Virus record (IMG/VR): IMGVR_UViG_3300031867_000270
Location: 1-35,643 of that record
Origin: a virus
Length of the DNA stretch: 35,643 bases
Direction: 5' to 3' (one strand)
Part shown: positions 3,453 to 21,111 of the stretch, piece by piece
Layout: each line of letters begins with the position of its first letter
How positions within the stretch are numbered: position 1 is the stretch's first letter
Position numbers and translations under genes: made by a program
Notes under the pieces: model-generated
Told to the model about the DNA's origin: nothing
The model's database searches: none
What the model saw: only the letters and a program-made list of their open reading frames with translations

Positions 3453-3953
3453 ATGTCTGATATAAGAAAAATAGATAGAACAGAATGGGTAGACTTTTTA
3501 AATGTAAGTAATACAAGCACACCAGATTGGGCAATAATTGGAATTGGTATCACAGATAAATCAACAGACTACAATGCAGAAGTTTCAGAAGAAAAATGGA
3601 TAATCCATAAAAATGCAAATAAAACAGTTGATAGTTATGCATTACAATCTGGTGTAGAACAAACTGCTTATAAAGGTGACCCAGTATTTGAATTTGTAGA
3701 TAACATTAGATATAGATTATTAACTGGTTCAGATGCAGAAACAGATTTATTAGAAATAGATAAATATAGTGCATCTTCTAGTGATACACCTGAATACAGA
3801 GCTAGAAAATGGAGAGTTGCAATTGAAATAAGCTCTAATGCTGGAGATACAGCAAAAGTTAATTACAATATTCATTATATAGGAGACCCATCATTTGGAA
3901 AAGTAACATTTTCAGATGGTACACCAACATTTACAGAAGTTGCATCATTATAA
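3453..3953 (+). CDS. Major tail protein
   Basis: 166 aa, strong RBS GAAGGAA, last gene before the chaperone/tape-measure block. Confidence 0.6.
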   Translation: MSDIRKIDRTEWVDFLNVSNTSTPDWAIIGIGITDKSTDYNAEVSEEKWIIHKNANKTVDSYALQSGVEQTAYKGDPVFEFVDNIRYRLLTGSDAETDLLEIDKYSASSSDTPEYRARKWRVAIEISSNAGDTAKVNYNIHYIGDPSFGKVTFSDGTPTFTEVASL

Positions 3954-4004
3954 TAAAAGCCAGAAAAAGAAGATAATTATTTGGATTTAAAAAAATTCAA
4001 ACCA

Positions 4005-4184
4005 TTAATTACCTTCTTTTTCTTTCAATTCATTTACTATAGTACGAGTAGCCTCTACAACAAAGGCACTAAAAGTAGATTCTTTCCCTCGAATCAAATT
4101 TTCAATATCATCAATTAAATCATTAGGAAATCTAATAGAACGCTGAGTCGTAGATGGAATTACTGGTATTTTAAAATTACTCAT
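4005..4184 (-). CDS. Ribbon-helix-helix (Arc/CopG-like) DNA-binding protein
   Basis: ATG 4184 lies 8 nt after GGAG (the track ORF opens with GTG 4193). RSIRFPNDLIDDIENLI..FSAFVVEATRTIV fits a beta-strand/helix/helix RHH pattern. The gene is antisense to the tail operon. Confidence 0.65.
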   Translation of the reverse strand: MSNFKIPVIPSTTQRSIRFPNDLIDDIENLIRGKESTFSAFVVEATRTIVNELKEKEGN

Positions 4185-4231
4185 ATTAATCACTCCGTTA
4201 TTATTTATTAATTAATATTATAAATTACAAA

Positions 4232-4274
4232 TGGGTTACAGTATGTATTTTAATTAAATCCCAAGTGGGTTACA
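4232..4274. promoter_or_regulatory. Two direct 9-bp repeats TGGGTTACA upstream of the RHH gene (candidate RHH operator)
   Basis: Copies at 4232-4240 and 4266-4274, 34 bp apart, in the divergent intergenic region. Confidence 0.35.
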
Positions 4275-4364
4275 TTAAAAGAAAAATATATAAACTATTA
4301 TATATAAAGAATAGTGAAGAAAATGTCGAAAAAGAGAAAATTTTTTATATAAAGTTATTTTTGT

Positions 4365-4393
4365 TGACAAGTTTCGACAAATTTTTTATTTTT
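4365..4393 (+). promoter_or_regulatory. Moron promoter with the TTTCGACAAATT motif in its spacer
   Basis: TTGACA 4365-4370, then TATTTT about 16 nt downstream (weak -10; TATGTT at 4396-4401 is an alternative). The exact 12-mer is at 4372-4383. Confidence 0.5.
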
Positions 4394-4482
4394 TTTATGT
4401 TATTCTAAAAATACATACAAAAGACCACGATAGTGGTCGGAAAATATTATTTAATTTGTAAATAATAAAAGGAGGAATAGTA

Positions 4483-4986
4483 ATGAAAAAAGAATATGAA
4501 TTTTCGGATTTTAGTAATGGAGGGAAAACTAAAGTTATAATTGAAGATGGTAGATTAACTATTTCTAGGCCAGGAATCTTGTCAAAGTTCTCACATGGAT
4601 TTACAGGTGAAAAAACCATATTAATAAAAAATATTTCAGCTGTACAATTTAAGCCTGTTGGATTTGCTAGAGGATATTTGCAATTTGTGCTTGCAGGAAC
4701 TAGAGAAGCTAAAAGTGGAATAGTAATGGGAGCAAAAGATGAAAATATTATTTATTTTGCTTCTGGATTTAACAATGAAAAGATAAACAAAAAAGCAAGA
4801 GAGATAAAAGAATACATAGAGAACTATAATACAAAATTATCTCAAAATAATACTACGAATATATATAATAGTTCTGATAAATATGATAAATTGATAAAGA
4901 TAAAGAAATTGCTAGATAATGGTATTTTATCGAATGAAGAATATGAAAAAGAAAAAAAGAAAATATTACAAGAAGAGGTCCAATAG
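4483..4986 (+). CDS. PH-like (DUF4429-type) domain protein with C-terminal SHOCT domain
   Basis: RBS AAGGAGG. The N-terminal pattern GRLTI...GEKTILIKNISAVQF..GYLQFVLAG resembles bacterial PH/DUF4429. The C-terminus DKLIKIKKLLDNGILSNEEYEKEKKKIL matches the SHOCT signature. Confidence 0.6.
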   Translation: MKKEYEFSDFSNGGKTKVIIEDGRLTISRPGILSKFSHGFTGEKTILIKNISAVQFKPVGFARGYLQFVLAGTREAKSGIVMGAKDENIIYFASGFNNEKINKKAREIKEYIENYNTKLSQNNTTNIYNSSDKYDKLIKIKKLLDNGILSNEEYEKEKKKILQEEVQ

Positions 4987-11608: not shown

Positions 11609-14443
11609 TTGAAACTAAAAGTAAATAAAGATAAAGTCAAAATAATAGAAGGTAACAAAGTAGAAAGCGGAGAATACAACATAACAGAACTAGAATTTGA
11701 ATTTACAGAAGAATATGAAAGTTTGGTAAAAGTAGCAGTATTTACTAACTCATATGGAAGCTATAAAGTAGATATAGTTGATAACAAATGCAGTATAGCA
11801 AATGAAGTATTAGAAAAAGCAGATACTGTAAAAATAGGTGTCTATGCTTACAAATCAGAAAACGAAGAACTACAATTAAGATATAGCCCAACACCAACAT
11901 ATTTTAAAGTAAAAGAGGGGTCATATGTAAAGAATGCGAACAATTCAGAAGAACCAACACCAAGTGAAGTAGAAATATTAGAGGCGAGAATACAACAAAA
12001 TGCAGACAACATAGAAACTTTAGATGAAGTTATTAGCGGACTACACAATTACGACGACACAGAGATAAAAAATGATATATCTGTTTTAGAAGATAAAGTG
12101 GACAACCTACATAATTATGATGACACAGGAATTAAACAAGATATATCATCAATAGAGCGAAAGAATACAGAACAAGACACATCAATACAGAATTTACAAA
12201 ACAACAAAGCAGATAAAACAGAAATACCAACAAACCTATCAGACCTAAACGAAGATACAACACATAGAACAGTAACAGATGTAGAAAAAGAAAGCTGGAA
12301 TAATAAAAGTGAATTTAGTGGTTCATATAATGACTTAACAGACAAGCCATCAATTCCAACAAAAACAAGTGATATAACAAACGATAGTGGCTTTATAGAT
12401 AAAGACGTAAACAACTTAACAAATTACGAGCTAAAAACAAATACGGGTTCTAGCATAGCTTTATCAATAAATAGCAGTACATATGCAATGACATTGCAAT
12501 TAAAGAATAGTGCTAATCAAGTATTAAGTGAAGGCACAATAGACCTACCACTAGAAACAATGGTAGTAAATGCAAGTTATGATAATTCAACAAAAGAAGT
12601 AGTGCTAACATTACAAAGTGGAACTACAACAAGATTTAGTGTAGCAGATTTAGTAAGTGGATTAGTAAGTACAACAGATTTAAACACAGTATTAGCAAGT
12701 TATTACACTAAAACAGAAATAGATAATTTGCTAGGTGGAAAAGTAGACAAAGTAGCAGGAAAAGGACTAAGTACAGAAGATTACACAACAGAAGAAAAAA
12801 CAAAGCTAGCAGGGTTAGAAAACTACGATGACAGCGAATTAGTAGAGCAAATAGAAGCACTTGAAACAGAGCTAGAGCAAACACAAACAGAACTTGCTGA
12901 AACTAATTTAAAGCTAGACAGAACAAGAGCAAGTTTACCAACAGTAAGCGGAGAAGGAGAATATGTTACTTTAGACGGAACAAGTGAAGATGAATTTATA
13001 GAAGCTCCTTTGCCTATGGGAAAGACAGAACAAACAACATACAAGGGGATACAATTATTAAAGGAACAAGGATTTAGTACGCCAACAAGTGATTTTAATT
13101 TTTGGAACAATTCTATAACAAATCAAATTGAGCCAAAAGAAGATGGTTGGGGAAGAATTTATTTTGACAATAGTAGTGGAACAGGGAATGCATACCGTTA
13201 TACTTATATAAAACTTAAAGGTATTGATTTAGAGGAAGAAACTCAATATACAGCTATAGTAGAAATTAGAAATATAGCCTCTAATAATACAGTTAAAAGT
13301 ATTACATTTTGTCAAAATAGAACAGAAGAAGCATTCGCAACAGCTAAAAATGTTCCAATAAGTAAAGGAACAAATAAATTTTTAATGACAACTAAAAGTG
13401 ATTTTACGGGGGTGTATTTAGGCATAAGAATGTACACATATGTTGGTGCTGGAGATATATGTGATTATGAAATAAGAGTAAGTATTGTAAAAGGAGATTA
13501 TACATCTACTGATTATACTTACGAACCCTATGTAGGAGGAACAGCTTCACCTAACCCAGACTATCCACAAGAGATAAAGAATGTTAGTGGAGATGTTAAT
13601 GTAACAGTGGGGAATAAGAATTTATTTGATATAGATAATGCAAATTGGATATTATTTAGGTCTTATTATCCTGCTACTTATGACAGTAACAATGATGGCT
13701 GGTATAATCACGATTATATGTCGTTAGAATTTACTCCAGCAAAACAACAAACTATATCTTTTAAAATAAAAAAGAGAACAAAAGCGACAGGAGAATATCC
13801 ATATAGTGCAGCTTGGAATTTATCCAAAGATGGTAGTGTTGTTAAGTACAATACTGGAAGTAGTAGTTCAGAATATGTAGATGTAAATTATACAATGGAA
13901 GCAGGACATAAATATTCTTTAATGGTATATAATCCTGTATTTATAAACTATATCCAACTAGAACAAGGATCAACAGCCACTTCCTACGTCCCACACCAAC
14001 AACAAACCTTTACCTTCCCGTTATCTACAGGACAAAAGCTAATGGAGGGAGATTACTTAGCTGATGATGGAGTGCATCATGTGAGAAATCAGACTACTGA
14101 AAGTGGTACAACAATAACATTATCAGATGCTAAAAATAATGGTGTGTATGTATGTAATAAGAAAACAACAGGAAATCTAGTAGGACAAACACTAACATTT
14201 GATGAAGCTGTAACAGATGCAATAATAGAATACGAACTAGCAGAAGAAATAATCGAACCATATACAGAAGCACAACAAACAGCCTATAACAACATCAAAA
14301 AAGCACTTTCATATAGTGGACAAACAAACATATATAGTACAAATGAAGTTAGCCCTACATTTAAAGTAAAGGCGTATGCAGATGTATCAAGTGAAATAGA
14401 TAACTTAAAAACAGCTATTGTAGCGTTAGGGGGTGTTGTATAA
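11609..14443 (+). CDS. Tail fibre / receptor-binding protein
   Basis: 944 aa, TTG start after GGAGGTG. Repeated LHNYDDT(E/G)IK coiled-coil modules and a large C-terminal beta-rich domain. Confidence 0.7.
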   Translation: MKLKVNKDKVKIIEGNKVESGEYNITELEFEFTEEYESLVKVAVFTNSYGSYKVDIVDNKCSIANEVLEKADTVKIGVYAYKSENEELQLRYSPTPTYFKVKEGSYVKNANNSEEPTPSEVEILEARIQQNADNIETLDEVISGLHNYDDTEIKNDISVLEDKVDNLHNYDDTGIKQDISSIERKNTEQDTSIQNLQNNKADKTEIPTNLSDLNEDTTHRTVTDVEKESWNNKSEFSGSYNDLTDKPSIPTKTSDITNDSGFIDKDVNNLTNYELKTNTGSSIALSINSSTYAMTLQLKNSANQVLSEGTIDLPLETMVVNASYDNSTKEVVLTLQSGTTTRFSVADLVSGLVSTTDLNTVLASYYTKTEIDNLLGGKVDKVAGKGLSTEDYTTEEKTKLAGLENYDDSELVEQIEALETELEQTQTELAETNLKLDRTRASLPTVSGEGEYVTLDGTSEDEFIEAPLPMGKTEQTTYKGIQLLKEQGFSTPTSDFNFWNNSITNQIEPKEDGWGRIYFDNSSGTGNAYRYTYIKLKGIDLEEETQYTAIVEIRNIASNNTVKSITFCQNRTEEAFATAKNVPISKGTNKFLMTTKSDFTGVYLGIRMYTYVGAGDICDYEIRVSIVKGDYTSTDYTYEPYVGGTASPNPDYPQEIKNVSGDVNVTVGNKNLFDIDNANWILFRSYYPATYDSNNDGWYNHDYMSLEFTPAKQQTISFKIKKRTKATGEYPYSAAWNLSKDGSVVKYNTGSSSSEYVDVNYTMEAGHKYSLMVYNPVFINYIQLEQGSTATSYVPHQQQTFTFPLSTGQKLMEGDYLADDGVHHVRNQTTESGTTITLSDAKNNGVYVCNKKTTGNLVGQTLTFDEAVTDAIIEYELAEEIIEPYTEAQQTAYNNIKKALSYSGQTNIYSTNEVSPTFKVKAYADVSSEIDNLKTAIVALGGVV

Positions 14444-14682
14444 TGAACGAATTTTTAAGAAACTTTATAATGACAACAATCTTCAAAATGATAGACAATA
14501 ACATACCAGAATGGCAAGTAAGAGAATACGCATTAGGCTGGTATACAAAAGGAATATTAACAGAAGAAGATTTAAAATCAATAGATGAAAAATACAAAGA
14601 AGAGCCAGTAGAAGAAACTGAACAGCTTGATGAAGAAGTGAACAGCACTGAACAGACTAATGATGAAAGTGAGGAAAAATAA
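14443..14682 (+). CDS. XkdX-like small phage protein
   Basis: 79 aa. GWYTKGILTEEDLKSI resembles the XkdX family; sits between the fibre and lysis genes. Confidence 0.45.
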   Translation: MNEFLRNFIMTTIFKMIDNNIPEWQVREYALGWYTKGILTEEDLKSIDEKYKEEPVEETEQLDEEVNSTEQTNDESEEK

Positions 14683-15002
14683 TGGAACATATAACAATAG
14701 GTCAAATAACAAATGCAATAACATTAATAATGGTAATAGTAGGTGCATTTGCTACAATATATAAATTTGTGCACGATGCATTTTTCGACAAATTAAAATG
14801 TTTAGAAGGTAGGCTTGTGAAATTAGAAGAAGAAACAGAAAGACAAGGAAATGACATAAAGGATAGCAAAGAAGAAAGACTATTATTAATGCAAGGGTTA
14901 TTAGCATGTTTGAAAGGATTAAAAGAACAAGGTTGTAATGGACCTGTAACTCAAGGAATTATAGATATAGAAGAATACATTACACAGAAATCTCATAAAT
15001 AG
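14682..15002 (+). CDS. Holin-like protein (single N-terminal TM plus coiled coil, BhlA/UviB- or XhlA-like architecture)
   Basis: TM segment ITNAITLIMVIVGAFATIY followed by a charged coiled coil; immediately upstream of the lysin. Confidence 0.5.
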   Translation: MEHITIGQITNAITLIMVIVGAFATIYKFVHDAFFDKLKCLEGRLVKLEEETERQGNDIKDSKEERLLLMQGLLACLKGLKEQGCNGPVTQGIIDIEEYITQKSHK

Positions 15003-15013
15003 GAGGGGATATT

Positions 15014-16399
15014 ATGAAAAATAAACCTAATAAAATAGTCGGATTGATAATGTCAATCGTAGTAGCAACACTATCATTAGTTAGTGTTTTTTTATTGTAT
15101 AAAAATACAGGGAAAGTTGATACAAATAAAATAGAAAAAGCAGTTGAAACAATTGTTGAAGGCATAGAAACTTATCAAATGTCAGAAGCAGAAATAAACG
15201 AACTTCCTTCTACTAAAATAATAGAACAAACACAAGAGCAAGAAAATGCAATAGAACAAGAAGTAGAAGATGAAGGATTTGAATTACAAGGGAATATTGC
15301 ATATGAAGGCGATAGAGCAAGAAGTTGGGATGTTGAACTAGGCGATTATAAAGGCTTAACATACTACTCACAATTAGATAGCAGATGGGCAAGTCTACCA
15401 TACACAAGTACAGGGAACTCAAGTCAAACAATAGGTTCAAGTGGTTGTGCACCAACAACAGCTTCAATGGTAGTAACTGCAATAAAAGGAGCAATAACAC
15501 CAGATAAGATGAGCAACTTATTTGCTCAAAATGGATACAGAAGTGCAAACAATGGTACATACTTAAGTGCTTTCAGAGCAGTAGCAGATGAATTTGATAT
15601 AGGATATGAAGAAACATATTCATTAGACAGAGCAGTAGAGTTGTTAAGAAACAATCATTATGTTGCTTGTAGTTGTGCGAATGGACTATTCACAACAGGT
15701 GGACATCTAATTCTAATTGCAGGAATTGATGGAGATACATTAAAGATATATGACCCATATCTATATAGTGGTAAATTTGAAACATCTACAAGAAGAGGAA
15801 AAGTAACAGTAAATGGAAATACAGTATATTGCTCAATAAGTAATTTTAGAAGATATGCAAATGCTACAAGATTTTTCGCTTATGCACATAACGGAAATGT
15901 ACCAACAAATAATGATAAACCAGTTGTAACCAATACATACACAAGATATGTAAAATCAAATGGTGGACTTAATGTAAGAAATAGTGCTAATGGAACTAGA
16001 ATAGGTGGACTAGCAAATGGAACAAGAGTAACAGTTGATAAAACAAGTGGAAATTGGTCACATATAACAAGCCCTGTTAATGGTTGGGTAAGTTCAACAT
16101 ACTTAGTAAGTTCTATTACAACAAATGCTACAAACAATACACCTACATCAGGAAAGAAATATACAACAGGATCATATAGAGTTACAACTAATATAAATGT
16201 AAGATATGGACCTGGAACAAACTATAAAAGAAAAACATATAAACAATTATCTGCTAATGCAAGACAACAAAATAGACGTCTAGGCGGAGAATACAGCGGT
16301 TATAGAAAAGGTGTTGTATGTACTATTACAAAAGTAAGCGGAAGATGGGGACTTTCAAAAAGCGGATGGATTTGTTTAGATTTTTGCAAAAAAATATAA
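15014..16399 (+). CDS. Endolysin: N-terminal signal-anchor TM, C39-like/papain-like peptidase domain, two SH3b domains
   Basis: IVGLIMSIVVATLSLVSVFLLY is the TM segment. YYSQLDSRWASLPY...GSSGCAPTTASMV is the Cys-peptidase motif. Two SH3_3-like repeats (GLNVRNSANGTRIG...; NVRYGPGTNYKRK...). Confidence 0.75.
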   Translation: MKNKPNKIVGLIMSIVVATLSLVSVFLLYKNTGKVDTNKIEKAVETIVEGIETYQMSEAEINELPSTKIIEQTQEQENAIEQEVEDEGFELQGNIAYEGDRARSWDVELGDYKGLTYYSQLDSRWASLPYTSTGNSSQTIGSSGCAPTTASMVVTAIKGAITPDKMSNLFAQNGYRSANNGTYLSAFRAVADEFDIGYEETYSLDRAVELLRNNHYVACSCANGLFTTGGHLILIAGIDGDTLKIYDPYLYSGKFETSTRRGKVTVNGNTVYCSISNFRRYANATRFFAYAHNGNVPTNNDKPVVTNTYTRYVKSNGGLNVRNSANGTRIGGLANGTRVTVDKTSGNWSHITSPVNGWVSSTYLVSSITTNATNNTPTSGKKYTTGSYRVTTNINVRYGPGTNYKRKTYKQLSANARQQNRRLGGEYSGYRKGVVCTITKVSGRWGLSKSGWICLDFCKKI

Positions 16400-16410
16400 T
16401 AAATCGCAAA

Positions 16411-16445
16411 TTTCGACAAATTCTGCAAAAATAATGTGCTATAAT
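16411..16445 (+). promoter_or_regulatory. TTTCGACAAATT motif followed by an extended -10 (TGcTATAAT)
   Basis: 12-mer at 16411-16422; TG 16437-16438; TATAAT 16440-16445. Located 12 nt after the endolysin stop. Confidence 0.45.
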
Positions 16446-16495
16446 AAACATGGATTTTATAATTAGAAAGATTATATGAAAACACATCTTTCATT

Positions 16496-16532
16496 GAGGT
16501 AGGGTAGATTCAATCTATTCTACCTCTTTTTT
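16496..16532 (+). terminator. Strong intrinsic terminator (end of the late operon and/or of a short transcript)
   Basis: GAGGTAG...CTACCTC outer stem with an inner TAGAT-TCA-ATCTA stem, followed by TTTTTT. Confidence 0.8.
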
Positions 16533-16563
16533 GCTTTTTATAAAAAAATATGTTATAATAGTG

Positions 16564-16592
16564 TTGACATAAATTGAAATTAGTGTTAATAT
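16564..16592 (+). promoter_or_regulatory. Sigma-A-type promoter pointing into the 3' end of the minus-strand membrane-protein gene (antisense)
   Basis: TTGACA 16564-16569, 17-nt spacer, TAATAT 16587-16592. Confidence 0.5.
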
Positions 16593-16660
16593 TTTTATTA
16601 CAACTTTATTACATTTTTGTAATAAGGGTTGACTAAAAATAATATTAATATTATTATAAT

Positions 16661-16686
16661 AAAAAAGAATAAGAGCCGAAGCCCTT
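16661..16686 (-). terminator. Intrinsic terminator of the small membrane-protein gene
   Basis: On the minus strand: AAGGGC-UUCG-GCUCUU followed by ATTCTTTTTT; overlaps the stop codon. Confidence 0.65.
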
Positions 16687-16864
16687 ATTCATGATAAGTT
16701 GTTTTGTTGGAGTCCGTAGCCTGGACTTCAATTTTTTTATGATTATCTTGGTATTTTATATATGTATTATAACCCAGACTTGCTAAAAAACATAAAACAA
16801 TACCAACTATTAAAAAAATCAAAGCAATACCTAAGTATCGAACTGCTATCACTTCTGCAGTCAT
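16685..16864 (-). CDS. Small single-pass membrane protein (59 aa), hypothetical
   Basis: ATG 16864 lies 8 nt after AAGGAGG (the track ORF opens with GTG 16873). MTAEVIAVRYLGIALIFLIVGIVLCFLASLGY, then a polar tail. Confidence 0.65.
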   Translation of the reverse strand: MTAEVIAVRYLGIALIFLIVGIVLCFLASLGYNTYIKYQDNHKKIEVQATDSNKTTYHE

Positions 16865-16914
16865 ATACTGCACCTCCTTCTTTTGTATTTACATCCAACT
16901 GCCTTAAAGAAAGC

Positions 16915-16965
16915 TGGATGCATTATCTAATAGTTAAGATGATTAATTACTAATTAATGCATCCA
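16915..16965. repeat. Perfect 10-bp inverted repeat in the 5' leader of the membrane-protein gene
   Basis: TGGATGCATT 16915-16924 pairs with AATGCATCCA 16956-16965 (31-nt loop). Confidence 0.6.
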
Positions 16966-16993
16966 ACTTCGAAGGAGTAACAACTTAGCAAAT

Positions 16994-17022
16994 AATATAT
17001 CAAAAATAATACTCATTGTCAA
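16994..17022 (-). promoter_or_regulatory. Promoter of the membrane-protein gene
   Basis: Minus strand TTGACA (17022-17017), 17-nt spacer, TATATT (16999-16994). A degenerate motif copy, TTTCGACAGATTT, lies just upstream (17044-17032). Confidence 0.55.
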
Positions 17023-17089
17023 ATAACTTATAAATCTGTCGAAAACGCCAAAAACCAAGCCATATAACTTGTTTCGCCCAAAATAAAAA

Positions 17090-17126
17090 GCCCTTAAAAT
17101 CGATTCTCACGCGTCGATTTTTGGGC
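17090..17126 (-). terminator. Intrinsic terminator of the XRE/Spo0E-like gene
   Basis: GCCC-TT-AAAATCGA ... TCGATTTT-T-GGGC long stem; the minus strand is followed by TTTTTATTTT. Confidence 0.7.
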
Positions 17127-17461
17127 TATTTTTCTTGATTTCTGTACTCATCGCTAATATTCAAAACTAGGTCTAACAACTGACTAATTTCCATAGTTTC
17201 TTTTGCATTTATACCATATTTATCTATACATTCATGCATCTTATTTCTCAAATCTTCAATATCAAGTTTAGTATAAAATAAATCTTTAACATTCACGTTT
17301 AAAGCATCTGCTATTTTAATTAATGATTGTAGAGTAGGATTTATTCTTCTGTTATGTTCTAAATCATATAAATAAGCACGAGATATACCAGTCATTTCAC
17401 TTAAAGCTTTAATAGATAAATTTGCTTTTTCTCTAAATTCTTTTATTACAAAAATATACAT
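17126..17461 (-). CDS. SinR/XRE-family HTH regulator with C-terminal Spo0E-like motif (111 aa)
   Basis: ATG 17461 after AGAGGTG (the longer track ORF runs through the promoter). HTH: SIKALSEMTGISRAYLYDLEHNRRINPTLQSLIKIADALNVNV. C-terminus: IEDLRNKMHECIDKYGINAKETMEISQLLDLVLNI. Confidence 0.7.
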   Translation of the reverse strand: MYIFVIKEFREKANLSIKALSEMTGISRAYLYDLEHNRRINPTLQSLIKIADALNVNVKDLFYTKLDIEDLRNKMHECIDKYGINAKETMEISQLLDLVLNISDEYRNQEK

Positions 17462-17520
17462 AACCACACCTCTGAAATAGTATCTGTATATTTTATAATA
17501 AATATTCAAACTTGAACAGA

Positions 17521-17586
17521 TGACGCTGGTAGCGTCACTTTTGTCGAACGATTTTTCTTGCATTTCGACAAATTCCGTATTACAAT
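17521..17586. promoter_or_regulatory. Divergent control region: inverted repeats plus a TTGCAT-17-TACAAT promoter carrying the 12-mer
   Basis: TGACGCT-ggt-AGCGTCA at 17521-17537. TTTGTCGAA 17540-17548 pairs with TTCGACAAA 17564-17572. -35 at 17558-17563, -10 at 17581-17586. Confidence 0.55.
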
Positions 17587-17622
17587 TTTTATAAATCAAA
17601 GAGAGAATATTTGGAGGAAGAA

Positions 17623-17793
17623 ATGGAAGAATTATATGTAATAAGTAAAGAAGATTTTGAAAAGTTTTTTAAAAAAGAAAGTATTGTTGACAAGAAAAAA
17701 GTTTATGAAAAATATAAAAAACATACAAACAATAATTTGGAAAAATTATCACATTATTATCACACAAGTTTGAAATTATATAAAAATAATTAA
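17623..17793 (+). CDS. Hypothetical small protein (56 aa)
   Basis: ATG 17623 lies 5 nt after GGAGG. Lys-rich; its 3' end contains copy 1 of the 27-bp repeat. Confidence 0.4.
   Translation: MEELYVISKEDFEKFFKKESIVDKKKVYEKYKKHTNNNLEKLSHYYHTSLKLYKNN
17745..17771. repeat. 27-bp direct repeat, copy 1 (ATTATCACATTATTATCACACAAGTTT)
   Basis: Identical to 17949-17975; contains two ATTATCACA sub-repeats. Confidence 0.9.
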
Positions 17794-17905
17794 AAAAGAA
17801 AAGAATGAGAAACGTTGAAAATACTGTAAAACAGAAATGTGCAAGATTGAGCAAAAACAACAAAAACGTACCCCTCTCTCGCTACCAATATTTTTCAAAT
17901 GCCTA

Positions 17906-17944
17906 AAAATAGCAAGTTTCATACGATTTGAGACTTGCTATTTT
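17906..17944 (-). terminator. Hairpin downstream of int (terminator-like, inside the putative attP region)
   Basis: 12-bp perfect stem: AAAATAGCAAGT ... ACTTGCTATTTT. Confidence 0.55.
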
Positions 17945-17948
17945 AATT

Positions 17949-17975
17949 ATTATCACATTATTATCACACAAGTTT
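17949..17975. repeat. 27-bp direct repeat, copy 2, abutting the integrase stop codon
   Basis: Identical to 17745-17771. Confidence 0.9.
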
Positions 17976-19110
17976 AGAATAAAGAGTTTAATTTATCAAT
18001 TGCAATATCTTTTTGACTTTTTGAGCTATGCATGTAAATTTGTGTAATGCTAATTGCAGTATGTCCCATTAATTCAGCAACAGTTTGAATATCTATTCCA
18101 TTTTTTAATAACATAGAACCATATGTATGTCTTATTGCGTGAAATTTTCTATGAGGTAGATCACATGCTTTTAAAATTTTAGTCCATTCTGTAGAAACAT
18201 TTTTACCTTTAAGAGGATTATTATTTTCATCGTGGAATAATAGTCCATTTTTCTTTTTAACTTTTGCAAGTTCATCAACTAAATTACTAGGGAGTGGAAC
18301 AGTTCTGTATGAATTTTGAGTTTTAGGAACCTGAAAAACGGTTTCAATATGTTTATGAGTATCATCATCATATACATAAACTTCTTTTACACTTCTATCT
18401 ACAGTTGCTTCTTTTTTATCTAGATCAACGAATTTCCAATCAATAGCAAGTAGTTCTCCCATTCTAAAACCTGTAGCAATATCAAACAAAAATAGAAGAT
18501 AAAATTGAATATTATTTGTATCTAGTAAATATTTTTTTATAATAGATATTTCTTCTTCTGATAGAATTTCAACTTTTCTTCTCTTATTCTTTATAATATC
18601 TGATTTATTTCCTTTTATATTGACATTTAAGCAAGGATTTTTTAATATATATCCGTTTATAATACACCAATTAAAAAAGGTTTTTAGAGTTGAATTTAGA
18701 GTCTTTAATTGTGAATATGAATAATCTTTTTTATATAAATCATTATAATAGTTTTGCAACTGCATTAAATTGAAGCTATGTACTTTATTTCCAGCAATAG
18801 AAGAATCTCTAACATAATTTCTATATATACCCTCGTAACGCTGGAAAGTAGATGGTTTTATTTTAGAAGAATTGTGTAAATAATCAAATAACCAGGCATG
18901 CATTAAGTCATTAATAGTAATGTTTTCAAAATCATTAACTAAACCATATTTTAATTTATTGATATATTCATCAGCTTTTTCAATAGCTTCTCTTTCACAT
19001 TCTCCATAAAAAGTTTTTCTTATTCTAGTTCCATCAGCTTTAAAACCGACAGTTCTGGTAACACGAAAATATTTCTTTCCATTCATTTCAAAGTTGGTCT
19101 TTTTAGCCAT
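17974..19110 (-). CDS. int: Tyrosine integrase
   Basis: 378 aa. The C-terminal catalytic pattern HAIRHTYGSMLL...GHTAISITQIYMH gives the R-H-R-Y residues. N-terminal SAM-like domain. Confidence 0.92.
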   Translation of the reverse strand: MAKKTNFEMNGKKYFRVTRTVGFKADGTRIRKTFYGECEREAIEKADEYINKLKYGLVNDFENITINDLMHAWLFDYLHNSSKIKPSTFQRYEGIYRNYVRDSSIAGNKVHSFNLMQLQNYYNDLYKKDYSYSQLKTLNSTLKTFFNWCIINGYILKNPCLNVNIKGNKSDIIKNKRRKVEILSEEEISIIKKYLLDTNNIQFYLLFLFDIATGFRMGELLAIDWKFVDLDKKEATVDRSVKEVYVYDDDTHKHIETVFQVPKTQNSYRTVPLPSNLVDELAKVKKKNGLLFHDENNNPLKGKNVSTEWTKILKACDLPHRKFHAIRHTYGSMLLKNGIDIQTVAELMGHTAISITQIYMHSSKSQKDIAIDKLNSLF

Positions 19111-19128
19111 AACAACCTCCTATAAAAT

Positions 19129-19154
19129 AAGATAAGTATATTTCAACTTATCTT
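19129..19154 (-). terminator. Hairpin between the repressor gene and int
   Basis: AAGATAAGT-8 nt-ACTTATCTT, overlapping the repressor stop. Confidence 0.4.
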
Positions 19155-19795
19155 TAGTTTATTTCAAATTTTCCTATGTATTTACCTAATATCTTAATAG
19201 GTGTCTTTTTATCATATATTTGCCTTTTAAAACTCTCATCTGTACTCATAGGCTCTAGGAATACGAAATCTCCTTGTTTTGCAAATCTTTTTAATGTAGC
19301 ATCATAACCATTTACTAATACAACGGCTATATCTCCATCATCAACAATATCTTGCTTTCTAATAAGAGCATAAGCACCATTTCTAATTACTTTATTCATT
19401 GATTCGCCGTCTACTTTTAAGAAGAAACACTCTTCTGGATTTATAATTCCCATTAATGCAGGGTCAATAGGCAAGTATCCATTTAAACATTCTTCTGCCC
19501 AGTTAGGTTGCCCTGCTGATATTTTGCCGTATACAGGTGTCATAAATAACTTATTTGAAATGTTTTCATTCTTGTTATCTTTATCCTCAACTAAATCACT
19601 TTTTAATATATTAAAATAATTTGCTAATAATTCTATCTTATCTATTCTAGGATAATATAATGCATTACACCAACTTGAAACAGTAGAATAAGGTACATTT
19701 GTAATTTTAGCTATATCATTTCTAGTTTTGTTGTATTTTTCCATATAGTATTTTAAATTTTTAGAGAAAATTTCTTTATTTCCTAAATCACTCAT
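19154..19795 (-). CDS. CI-like repressor (XRE HTH plus LexA/S24 autopeptidase domain)
   Basis: ATG 19795 after GGAGGA. HTH: RNDIAKITNVPYSTVSSWCN. Ala-Gly site in KISAGQP. DGESM ... LKRF gives the Ser/Lys dyad. Confidence 0.88.
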   Translation of the reverse strand: MSDLGNKEIFSKNLKYYMEKYNKTRNDIAKITNVPYSTVSSWCNALYYPRIDKIELLANYFNILKSDLVEDKDNKNENISNKLFMTPVYGKISAGQPNWAEECLNGYLPIDPALMGIINPEECFFLKVDGESMNKVIRNGAYALIRKQDIVDDGDIAVVLVNGYDATLKRFAKQGDFVFLEPMSTDESFKRQIYDKKTPIKILGKYIGKFEIN

Positions 19796-19887
19796 TTTAT
19801 AAATCCTCCATGCACTAATATTAACACATTTTTTTAAAAAATGCAAAAAAAATTATAGAAAAACTAAAATTTTTTTGAAAAAAGTAT

Positions 19888-19915
19888 TGACATTATAGTT
19901 TAACTATAATATAAT
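19888..19915 (+). promoter_or_regulatory. Early rightward promoter with a 19-bp palindromic operator
   Basis: TTGACA 19888-19893, TATAAT 19910-19915. The palindrome ATTATAGTTTAACTATAAT at 19892-19910 fills the spacer. Confidence 0.7.
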
Positions 19916-19950
19916 GCAAACAGTTTAAAGAGAGAGGGGGAAATAAAAAA

Positions 19951-20148
19951 ATGCAAAAAGCAACGTTAAAGGCATTAAGAATTAATAAAGGATTAACATT
20001 AGAACAAGCTTCAAAAGAGCTAGATGTAAATATTACTACATTATCAAGTTATGAGAATGCAAAAACATTTCCTGATGTTCAAACGATAAATAAAATACTC
20101 GAATTGTATGAAACAACATATGATAATATTAATTTTTTATGCAATTAA
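19951..20148 (+). CDS. Cro-like XRE HTH protein
   Basis: 65 aa, divergent from the repressor gene. LTLEQASKELDVNITTLSSYENAK is the HTH. Confidence 0.75.
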   Translation: MQKATLKALRINKGLTLEQASKELDVNITTLSSYENAKTFPDVQTINKILELYETTYDNINFLCN

Positions 20149-20228
20149 ATTATAGTTTAACTATAATAGAAAAACTAAAAATTAAATTTTAAAAATAGTA
20201 TTGACAAATAAAATCTAACGATTTTATT
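20149..20228 (+). promoter_or_regulatory. Second copy of the 19-bp operator plus a duplicated promoter-like module and a second palindrome
   Basis: ATTATAGTTTAACTATAAT at 20149-20167. AGAAAAACTAAAA...GTATTGACA repeats the module at 19855-19893. AATAAAATC-taac-GATTTTATT at 20207-20228. Confidence 0.55.
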
Positions 20229-20279
20229 CAATAAAATTTTTAAGTATATGCTTATAACACCAAAGGAGGTGGAACGAAA

Positions 20280-20531
20280 ATGAATAGCAACGAAGAGTGG
20301 ATAAGCCTTAATGAATTTATGAGAAGAAGAAAAATAGGATACAACGTAGCAATGCAGATGATAACAAATAATGAAGTTGAGTATCAAAAGACAGATGGAG
20401 GCAGATACAAAATAAAAGTTGGTGGAGATTCAGTTAGCACTGAACTTTACAATAAATTACTAGAAAGAGCAACAAAGGCAGAAACAAAGTTAAAAATTCT
20501 AGAAGATATTATTTTAGAAGGGAGGAACTAA
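20280..20531 (+). CDS. Excisionase-family/MerR-like HTH protein (possible Xis)
   Basis: RBS AAGGAGGTGG. ISLNEFMRRRKIGYNVAMQMITNNEVEYQKTDGGRYKI resembles excisionase-type winged HTH. Confidence 0.45.
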   Translation: MNSNEEWISLNEFMRRRKIGYNVAMQMITNNEVEYQKTDGGRYKIKVGGDSVSTELYNKLLERATKAETKLKILEDIILEGRN

Positions 20532-20533
20532 AG

Positions 20534-20662
20534 ATGAGTAAAAGAGAAAAAGCAATATACAAAATAGCAGTAAAAGATACATTAGTAGTATCAAGTGGAA
20601 TAGTAACAGCAATAGCATTTGGCATGGCATTTATGATTAAAGCTGGAATATTTGTATTTTAA
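20534..20662 (+). CDS. Small membrane peptide (42 aa)
   Basis: ATG after GGGAGGAA; the C-terminal half is hydrophobic (VVSSGIVTAIAFGMAFMIKAGIFVF). Confidence 0.4.
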   Translation: MSKREKAIYKIAVKDTLVVSSGIVTAIAFGMAFMIKAGIFVF

Positions 20663-20675
20663 GGAGGACAAGCAC

Positions 20676-20894
20676 ATGAAAATTGAAGGCAGTGTTCAAG
20701 AAATAAAAGAATTATTTAAAAATTTTGAAATTAAAAAGACACCAGTTGCTGGAACAACTGATGTAATAAAGCTTGATGGTAAAAATATTTCAAACCAAAT
20801 GTTAAAAAAATCAATGTTATATCTTTACAAAGCATTAAAAGAAGAAGGCTTACAAAACACTGATGAATTTATTAATTTTTGGGAGAAATATTAA
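20676..20894 (+). CDS. Hypothetical protein (72 aa)
   Basis: ATG 20676 after AAGGAGGA (the track ORF opens upstream with TTG). Confidence 0.5.
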   Translation: MKIEGSVQEIKELFKNFEIKKTPVAGTTDVIKLDGKNISNQMLKKSMLYLYKALKEEGLQNTDEFINFWEKY

Positions 20895-21111
20895 AGTTAT
20901 CAAGTAACCAATTATGATAATCATGTAAGTTTTTAACAAATAATTTATTTGCACAAGATAATGATTTTTCATACAACTTATAATCTCGATTAGAAGGTTC
21001 AAAAGTAAAAAAATCCGAATTATACCAAGAGGAAATTTCTTTAGATGATTCTTTTATAACTAAATTGAGATTCTCTTCACAGTGTTGTGCAAAATTAGAA
21101 AAATCAGTCAT
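20872..21111 (-). CDS. Hypothetical protein (79 aa) antisense to the early operon
   Basis: ATG 21111 after GGAGGTG. Has its own extended -10 (TGtTATAAT on the minus strand, about 21135-21143). Its 3' end overlaps the convergent gene by 23 bp. Confidence 0.55.
   Translation of the reverse strand: MTDFSNFAQHCEENLNLVIKESSKEISSWYNSDFFTFEPSNRDYKLYEKSLSCANKLFVKNLHDYHNWLLDNFNISPKN

Follow-up and report, generated by a model that had tools for sequence, protein, structure and literature searches.

A phage-encoded helix-turn-helix protein with a Spo0E-like C-terminal domain, and its predicted Spo0A boxes, in prophages of gut Clostridia

Does a small regulator, encoded in the accessory region of a temperate phage, tie this phage to the sporulation pathway of its host? 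The question is raised by the IMG/VR record IMGVR_UViG_3300031867_000270, whose whole stretch of 35,643 nucleotides is the window analyzed here, and in particular by a reverse-strand gene at 17126-17461. A first-pass annotation, made from the sequence alone, had described its product as a SinR-style helix-turn-helix (HTH) domain fused to a motif of the Spo0E-like phosphatases. Each computational check proposed there turned out in favour of this description. Profile, fold and motif all identify the C-terminal domain as genuinely Spo0E-like, with the SQxxD signature retained. On balance, we hold it moderately probable that the gene and its control region form a self-regulated, Spo0A-responsive prophage module, whose predicted product would lower phosphorylated Spo0A (Spo0A~P) in spore-forming gut Clostridia; the phage is probably wired into the host's decision to form spores. 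The features of the gene are the following.

17126-17461 (-): HTH-Spo0E-like fusion gene, 111 amino acids (aa), stop codon at 17126-17128
17459-17461 (-): start codon ATG
17467-17473 (-): ribosome-binding site AGAGGTG
17490-17495 (-): TAAAAT, as read from the sequence a candidate -10 hexamer for a promoter belonging to the gene itself
17267-17461 (-): residues 1-65, XRE/Cro-C1 HTH domain, CylR2/SinR-like, with a short beta strand at each end
17129-17266 (-): residues 66-111, Spo0E-like two-helix hairpin
17171-17185 (-): codons of the SQLLD signature, residues 93-97
17080-17131 (-): terminator-like hairpin and U run, past the stop codon (-17.3 kcal/mol, z -2.0)

The two halves of the protein were compared separately with profile collections. 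Residues 66-101 match the Pfam family SpoOE-like (PF09388) with an expectation value (E) of 1e-9 and 38.6 bits, against a curated cut-off of 23, and the last 48 aa alone reach 42 bits. No SinI/SinR hook was matched in Pfam at E up to 10; the condition on which the first-pass annotation would have given up its claim, a C-terminal half with no significant profile match to Spo0E-like proteins, did not arise. When 31 relatives (45-96% identity) are aligned, S93, Q94 and D97 never vary, and neither do E91, L98 and I102. Structure prediction gives two helices (68-82 and 87-109), arranged as a hairpin both in the whole protein and in the C-terminal domain alone. The best PDB fold match of the C-terminal model is 2c0s, the nuclear magnetic resonance structure of a Spo0E-like aspartyl-phosphate phosphatase of B. 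anthracis (template modelling (TM) score 0.83, root mean square deviation 0.9 A over 44 columns, 27% identity). The same entry is also at the top of sequence and profile searches made with the C-terminal domain alone, where SQLLD is in register with SQELD. The marks of the family are found together: a profile match above threshold, an antiparallel two-helix hairpin, and an SQELD/SxxxD signature with the conserved Asp on helix 2. The family is otherwise defined by small stand-alone proteins (~40-100 aa), whereas the protein in question has 111 aa and an N-terminal HTH. When the C-terminal profile was run against 1.84 billion cluster representatives, 127 proteins were retrieved at E <= 0.001. 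These include fused proteins of 105-118 aa, matched at residues 63-108, and many proteins of 40-70 aa, matched near the N-terminus; the small ones checked are canonical Spo0E-like proteins (ISQELDLLI and similar), with 39-56 bits on PF09388. PHROGs offered no useful name for the C-terminal half.

The N-terminal half, annotated from the start as a SinR-style HTH, matches Pfam HTH_3 at residues 6-60 (E 2.9e-15). By PDB sequence search, its closest relative is the DNA-binding domain of SinR (E 1e-7, ~35% identity); by fold it is CylR2 (TM 0.92 normalised to CylR2, 35% identity), with SinR, DdrO and C-proteins among the other matches. The predicted model consists of strands 2-4 and 62-64 and a five-helix bundle, with a mean predicted local distance difference test (pLDDT) score of 76; the structure models used here are generally of moderate confidence (pLDDT 76-78). 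Profile match and five-helix fold assign the domain to the XRE/Cro-C1 family. Only HTH proteins were returned when the PDB was searched with the whole sequence, the fold search with the whole model was dominated by HTH, and PADLOC gave generic HTH matches only.

The start of the gene was also established by comparison. A mechanically defined open reading frame (ORF), 17126-17599 (-), opens at TTG 17599, 46 codons upstream of the ATG, and all 30 of 30 aligned relatives begin at the ATG position with M-x-[IV]-F. AGAGGT is kept in front of it, and the identical 111-aa product results from independent gene calls on two public contigs, in full agreement with the start and ribosome-binding site initially chosen. 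TAAAAT or TACAAT is kept in relatives at the position of the candidate -10, and no good -35 is found ahead of it. The terminator announced for the far end of the gene is present as the hairpin and U run listed above.

The fusion is a conserved family of proteins of ~104-118 aa, found in ~80 prophage loci of uncultured gut Clostridia (handles beginning with L in the following); their hosts are known from metagenome-assembled genomes alone. A word-indexed protein search yielded 66 clusters at 90% identity, all of 103-112 aa and all with HTH_3 and PF09388; the only name attached to one of them is "helix-turn-helix domain protein [Caudoviricetes sp.]". A near-full-length relative is encoded by 27 genome contigs of uncultured gut Clostridia (e.g. 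Clostridium sp. CAG:452) and by 51 IMG/VR viral contigs, and the fusion occurs in none of 50,697 deposited phage records. Gene order is constant: host genes (integrase or serine recombinase in circular assemblies), divergent small ORF, fusion gene, variable cargo, endolysin and holin. The cargo includes PIN or other toxin-antitoxin pairs, M78 peptidases and others. The fusion gene is the last or next-to-last gene at the lysis-side end of the prophage, a typical place for cargo expressed during lysogeny. Its assignment to such a slot is thereby borne out, since it lies between endolysin and integrase in the window and in the same slot in ~80 related loci.

Two loci are informative on the modularity of this arrangement. 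In locus L119, the same slot is occupied at 153-305 by a stand-alone Spo0E-like gene of 50 aa, which starts at GTG and has a ribosome-binding site to itself; the Spo0E-like domain can therefore be regarded as an independent module, able to work in the absence of the HTH. The protein is nearly identical to the fused C-terminal domains, the gene adjoins a PIN-domain toxin-antitoxin pair, and the comparison shows gain or loss of the domain within the fusion family. In L110 (4404-5969) the fusion protein is 87% identical and the control region identical, a large serine recombinase replaces the tyrosine integrase, and a PemK-like gene is added; the integration module has therefore been exchanged around a conserved accessory module.

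Several candidates were examined and not accepted as fusions. The Jeotgalibacillus ORF of L043 is SinR-like with a different C-terminus; gp44 of the C. difficile phage phiMMP02 and the faecal contig MT837341 have other C-termini, devoid of SQxxD; the other matches in Bacillales genomes align over the HTH only (residues 6-71). A small ORF beside the gene in L008 contains SQLLD, reaches only 14 bits on PF09388, and was not counted as Spo0E-like. As a separate observation, the prophage contig of L006 (CAVFGN010000020.1) is labelled Alistipes finegoldii and carries the same low-GC phage, while all other hosts are Clostridia; the label is probably a binning error.

The layout of the protein also suits a plain SinR-like regulator, in which the hairpin would only oligomerise or bind a small antagonist, as in SinR-SinI, and the Spo0E resemblance would be a relic. 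SinR (1b0n) has the same succession of HTH and helical hairpin, and its identity to the N-terminal domain is the ~35% already given. NCBIfam ranks SlrR first, over residues 5-100, although its 39.9 bits stay below the cut-off of 250, some Spo0E-like hairpins do dimerise, and a cognate operator, such as the one predicted below, implies a working regulator. We nevertheless consider this explanation unlikely. The hairpin scores above threshold as SpoOE-like and has no hook match; Bacillales homologues of SinR align over residues 6-71 only and differ in their C-termini. The invariant S93, Q94 and D97 are polar, surface-type residues, and not just hydrophobic packing positions; the same hairpin stands alone in the slot of L119. 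Finally, the N-terminal domain resembles CylR2, which dimerises without an extra domain.

The elements of the control region are listed here.

17521-17537: perfect 17-bp palindrome TGACGCT-N3-AGCGTCA, lying between the -10 and the proximal box; likely HTH operator
17542-17548 (+): perfect Spo0A box TGTCGAA, 4 nt from the palindrome
17564-17570 (-): perfect Spo0A box belonging to a copy of ATTTCGACAAATTC; it takes up the first 7 nt of the divergent promoter's spacer
17558-17586 (+): candidate divergent promoter TTGCAT-17 nt-TACAAT, facing the 56-aa ORF
17623-17793 (+): divergent 56-aa ORF with ribosome-binding site GGAGGA
17037-17043 (+): third perfect Spo0A box, immediately upstream of the promoter that serves the next gene, a hydrophobic ORF
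16412-16418 (-): fourth perfect Spo0A box, within the second exact copy of ATTTCGACAAATTC

The first-pass annotation had pointed to TTTCGACAAATT sites as presumed targets of the HTH protein. These contain TGTCGAA, the 7-bp core of the Spo0A box, which is bound by Spo0A of both B. subtilis and C. difficile (PMC3485338). In the window, 9 perfect copies are found against 1.29 expected, a number reached by none of 100 shuffles, and 4 of the 9 fall in a 1.2-kb accessory stretch (16412, 17037, 17542 and 17564). ATTTCGACAAATTC is an exact 14-nt repeat, corresponding to an extended box, at 16410-16423, just past the endolysin stop, and at 17562-17575, in the divergent promoter. At least one perfect box lies within 250 nt of the start codon in 68 of the 73 loci with enough upstream sequence. 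Box density, calculated for 69 non-redundant loci, is 11.6 per kb at -200 to -50, compared with 0.19 per kb elsewhere in the same loci, i.e. about 60-fold higher; no composition-matched heptamer comes near this enrichment, unless it is the box itself, shifted. A TT flank is conserved as well (TT-TGTCGAA). The box stays invariant while the recognition helix of the HTH and the rest of the control region vary; a conserved host factor is therefore a likelier binder than this HTH. The TTTCGACAAATT sites are thus more likely to be sites for host Spo0A than for the fusion protein, and the first-pass annotation is to be corrected in this detail. The link with the sporulation pathway, proposed on other grounds, is strengthened by the same result.

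A better candidate for the site of the fusion protein is the palindrome at 17521-17537. It has no second copy in the window, and most relatives have a palindrome at the equivalent place (-72 to -80 relative to the ATG). Its half-site centres are 10 bp apart, its arms change together, and its 3-nt centre is free. About seven classes of half-sites could be distinguished, each of them paired with a single recognition-helix class: TGACGCT with RAYLYD or RAYLFD, TGTCGCT with RSYISE or RTYLVE, GTTCGCT with SYLSE, TGTTGCT with NRSYLTQ, TGGAACT with RTYIRN or RTYIRE, TGGCTCT with TRSYLRD and, as an imperfect class, GTCCTCT with RTYLSN. Symmetry, spacing and co-variation with the helix make the palindrome the likelier operator of a dimeric HTH. 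Its interpretation as a terminator was rejected: there is no gene leading into it, and the gene strand lacks a T run behind it.

Of 65 non-redundant loci, 52 have a Spo0A box between the -35 and the -10 of the divergent promoter, mostly within near-consensus TTGACT-16/17-TATAAT promoters; this position predicts repression by Spo0A~P. Small divergent ORFs of 39-57 aa lie ~170-260 nt upstream of the fusion gene in nearly all loci (L001-L104). Many share a MEKLIVE... start, followed by sequences of at least four unrelated families, none with a known domain, and the 56-aa ORF of the window has no match in Pfam or PADLOC. The whole set looks like a conserved 5' end joined to swappable cargo. On the side of the fusion gene, boxes are placed ~60 and ~85 nt upstream of the likely transcription start. 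A further conserved palindrome, AGAAACGCGTTTCT, was noticed between the divergent promoter and the ribosome-binding site of the small ORF in L009, L011, L014, L017, L057 and L089; it is absent from the window and from L110.

Taken together, the preferred reading would work as follows. Rising Spo0A~P in a lysogen would bind the boxes, shut the divergent promoter, and probably help the weak promoter of the fusion gene. The fusion protein would bind its operator as a dimer, and thereby regulate its own expression, while its Spo0E-like hairpin would dock on the receiver domain of Spo0A and remove the phosphate. With less Spo0A~P, sporulation would be delayed or blocked, and phage promoters would be released from control by Spo0A. 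Overall, this would amount to negative feedback that keeps Spo0A~P low in lysogens or, when growth is lytic, in cells that enter stationary phase; the same loop would set which cargo promoter is active.

A number of points weigh against this proposal. For the protein, phosphatase function, Spo0A binding and DNA binding are predictions. The fold E-value for 2c0s is weak (0.17), because the domain is so short, and the profile E-value is 0.039; NCBIfam has no match for the C-terminal half, and two wider relatives carry SK instead of SQ. The co-variation between operator and helix is confounded, and inflated, by shared ancestry. The position of the boxes fits activation of the fusion gene by Spo0A, which is a guess from that position, and the sublineages L005, L025, L028 and L029 are devoid of boxes. 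Sporulation genes, SpoVAD and SpoVAC, were met in one host flank only (L010), and spo0A was not found in the fetched host flanks, each of at most 10 kb, by tblastn with a B. subtilis Spo0A query, an outcome that says little at this flank length. In C. difficile, Spo0E also acts via RstA (10.1101/2023.03.28.534590); the target, therefore, need not be Spo0A alone.

A more specific version of the proposal is that of a DNA-tethered Spo0A~P phosphatase, anchored by its HTH within bases of the boxes, and acting on adjacent bound Spo0A or on the free pool. We put it forward tentatively, as a possibility short of an expectation. If true, the locus would be a self-limiting, Spo0A-gated two-way switch, choosing the prophage cargo expressed in growing and in sporulating cells, and gut prophages could tune the sporulation of their hosts, hence their transmission.

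The closeness of box and palindrome, 4-6 nt in the window and in many relatives, could also point to a non-enzymatic role, in which the Spo0E-like domain senses Spo0A, phosphorylated or not, at the adjacent box, and sets expression of the divergent cargo with no net dephosphorylation. A single intergenic region does control two divergent promoters, and C. difficile Spo0E does bind both Spo0A and a DNA-binding regulator. Such a co-regulator, whose docking would recruit or stabilise both proteins on a composite site, or else block Spo0A, is in our opinion rather improbable. Some sublineages have ~40 nt between the palindrome and the nearest box; close contact is therefore not universal. Besides, the catalytic-type Asp is invariant, and the stand-alone form of L119 has no DNA anchor.

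That TGTCGAA is not a Spo0A site at all, but one for the HTH or for some other conserved factor, in a module unrelated to sporulation, is very improbable. In its favour, five bases are common to the box and to some palindrome half-sites (TGTCGCT), boxes sit within longer repeats such as ATTTCGACAAATTC, and spo0A was not found in the reachable host DNA (flanks up to 10 kb), but the 7-mer and its TT flank are invariant across loci with differing recognition helices and palindromes, the motif equals the experimentally defined Spo0A core, the adjacent gene has a Spo0E-like domain, and spoVA genes are present in at least one host flank.

The window represents a temperate siphovirus-like phage, whose genome is complete and circularly permuted and has a G+C content of ~28%; the fusion gene is in an accessory region of 1.6 kb between endolysin and integrase. 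Landmarks are given below.

802-1677: major head protein; tail genes are also present
15014-16399: endolysin
16685-16873 (-): neighbouring cargo gene, small hydrophobic protein of 59-62 aa, with its own strong promoter (17022->16994)
17974-19110 (-): tyrosine integrase
19154-19846 (-): CI-like repressor with HTH and S24 domains, facing the Cro-like gene
19951-20148: Cro-like gene, opposite the CI-like repressor

A CI-type lysogeny repressor is expected within the divergent CI/Cro switch beside the early genes, and the fusion gene lies on the other side of the integrase. Lysogeny is served by the separate switch at 19154-20148, which counts in favour of an accessory role for the fusion protein. 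No related phage was found for 14000-21000 of the window by megablast against phage records, no Rfam match falls within 16300-18100, and the window contains no tRNA genes.

The hydrophobic ORF at 16685-16873 looks like a type I toxin. The hairpin of its 5' leader (-37.8 kcal/mol, z -5.2) sequesters the ribosome-binding site by pairing. Plus-strand promoters at 16564 and 16629, and a terminator at 16706-16732 (+), converge on it, and these signals would result in a short antisense RNA over its 3' end. The ORF has no match in Rfam, Pfam or PADLOC. Close to the integrase, a direct repeat of 32 nt, 94% identical (ATTATCACATTATTATCACACAAGTTT...), occurs at 17745-17776 and 17949-17980, and brackets a hairpin with a 16-bp stem (17906-17944), directly past the integrase stop codon; repeats and hairpin may be integrase arm sites, or the attP region. 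In the tail module, a gap of 530 bp (3953-4483) contains a reverse-strand ORF of 59 aa, ribbon-helix-helix-like, at 4010-4186 (phrog_949). In the same gap, the next tail genes are preceded by a TTGACA at 4365, around which lie perfect Spo0A boxes at 4324 (+) and 4373 (-); this suggests that Spo0A control also extends to phage late genes.

Sporulation governs the survival of many gut Clostridia and their passage from one host to another. Prophage interference with it is a field at an early stage, in which Rap, Spo0E-like, AbrB and sigma-factor genes have been recognised on phages. The locus offers a compact case of ~0.5 kb that can be tested, made of a candidate phosphatase-HTH fusion, a predicted operator, and boxes inside or beside two divergent promoters. 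If the proposed mechanism is true, the phage would carry a feedback loop that acts on the master regulator of sporulation in abundant uncultured gut bacteria; this would also be, to our knowledge, the first case of a Spo0E-type domain working within a transcription factor.

No description of an HTH-Spo0E fusion was found in the literature, as the first-pass annotation had supposed. Both domains are tagged automatically by databases; architecture, operator and Spo0A-box wiring appear undescribed. A survey of Spo0E orthologues kept proteins of 40-100 aa only (10.1101/2023.03.28.534590), and would have missed a fusion of 111 aa; length filters used to catalogue such orthologues miss fused forms. 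Spo0E, YnzD and YisI of B. subtilis, BA1655 of B. anthracis (2c0s) and C. difficile Spo0E share with the fusion PF09388, the hairpin, an SQxLDxLIN-type signature on helix 2 and, presumably, Spo0A~P as a common target. They are chromosomal, stand-alone proteins of ~45-85 aa, whereas the fusion is phage-borne, HTH-linked and provided with a predicted cognate operator. C. difficile Spo0E has two binding partners, Spo0A and the HTH regulator RstA (10.1101/2023.03.28.534590).

Spo0E-like genes have been met in phages before, as stand-alone genes in Brevibacillus phages (PMC4909266), beside quorum-sensing receptors, and as bulk hidden Markov model matches in a gut phage database (PMC10075063, 10.1101/2021.07.15.452460). 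Among the deposited phage records, the C. perfringens phage phiCp-D has an annotated Spo0E of 43 aa. Like the fusion, these are phage-encoded members of the same family, proposed to manipulate host sporulation. They have no DNA-binding domain, and in those cases for which regulation has been proposed it depends on a separate, neighbouring RRNPP receptor gene, whereas here regulator and Spo0E-like domain are in one polypeptide, and the predicted control sites are Spo0A boxes. The coupling of an HTH regulator with a Spo0E-like effector is shared with Paenibacillus, where Alo quorum-sensing receptors control an adjacent downstream spo0E-like gene (PMC7425212); the Alo systems, however, consist of two separate genes and peptide signalling, and no peptide or receptor gene is evident at the fusion locus.

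For its build, the fusion is to be compared with SinR and SlrR of Bacillus; its total of ~110 aa is made up, like SinR, of an HTH and then a helical hairpin. SinR is the nearest HTH by sequence and CylR2 of Enterococcus the nearest by fold (TM 0.92), but the hairpin of the fusion belongs to the Spo0E-like family, and not to the SinI/SinR hook. For its wiring, the closest parallel is given by phages phi29 and Nf, whose promoters carry host Spo0A boxes, so that phage expression follows the sporulation state (PMC2731898). phi29 only listens to Spo0A, whereas the phage described here also has a candidate enzyme, predicted to feed back on Spo0A~P.

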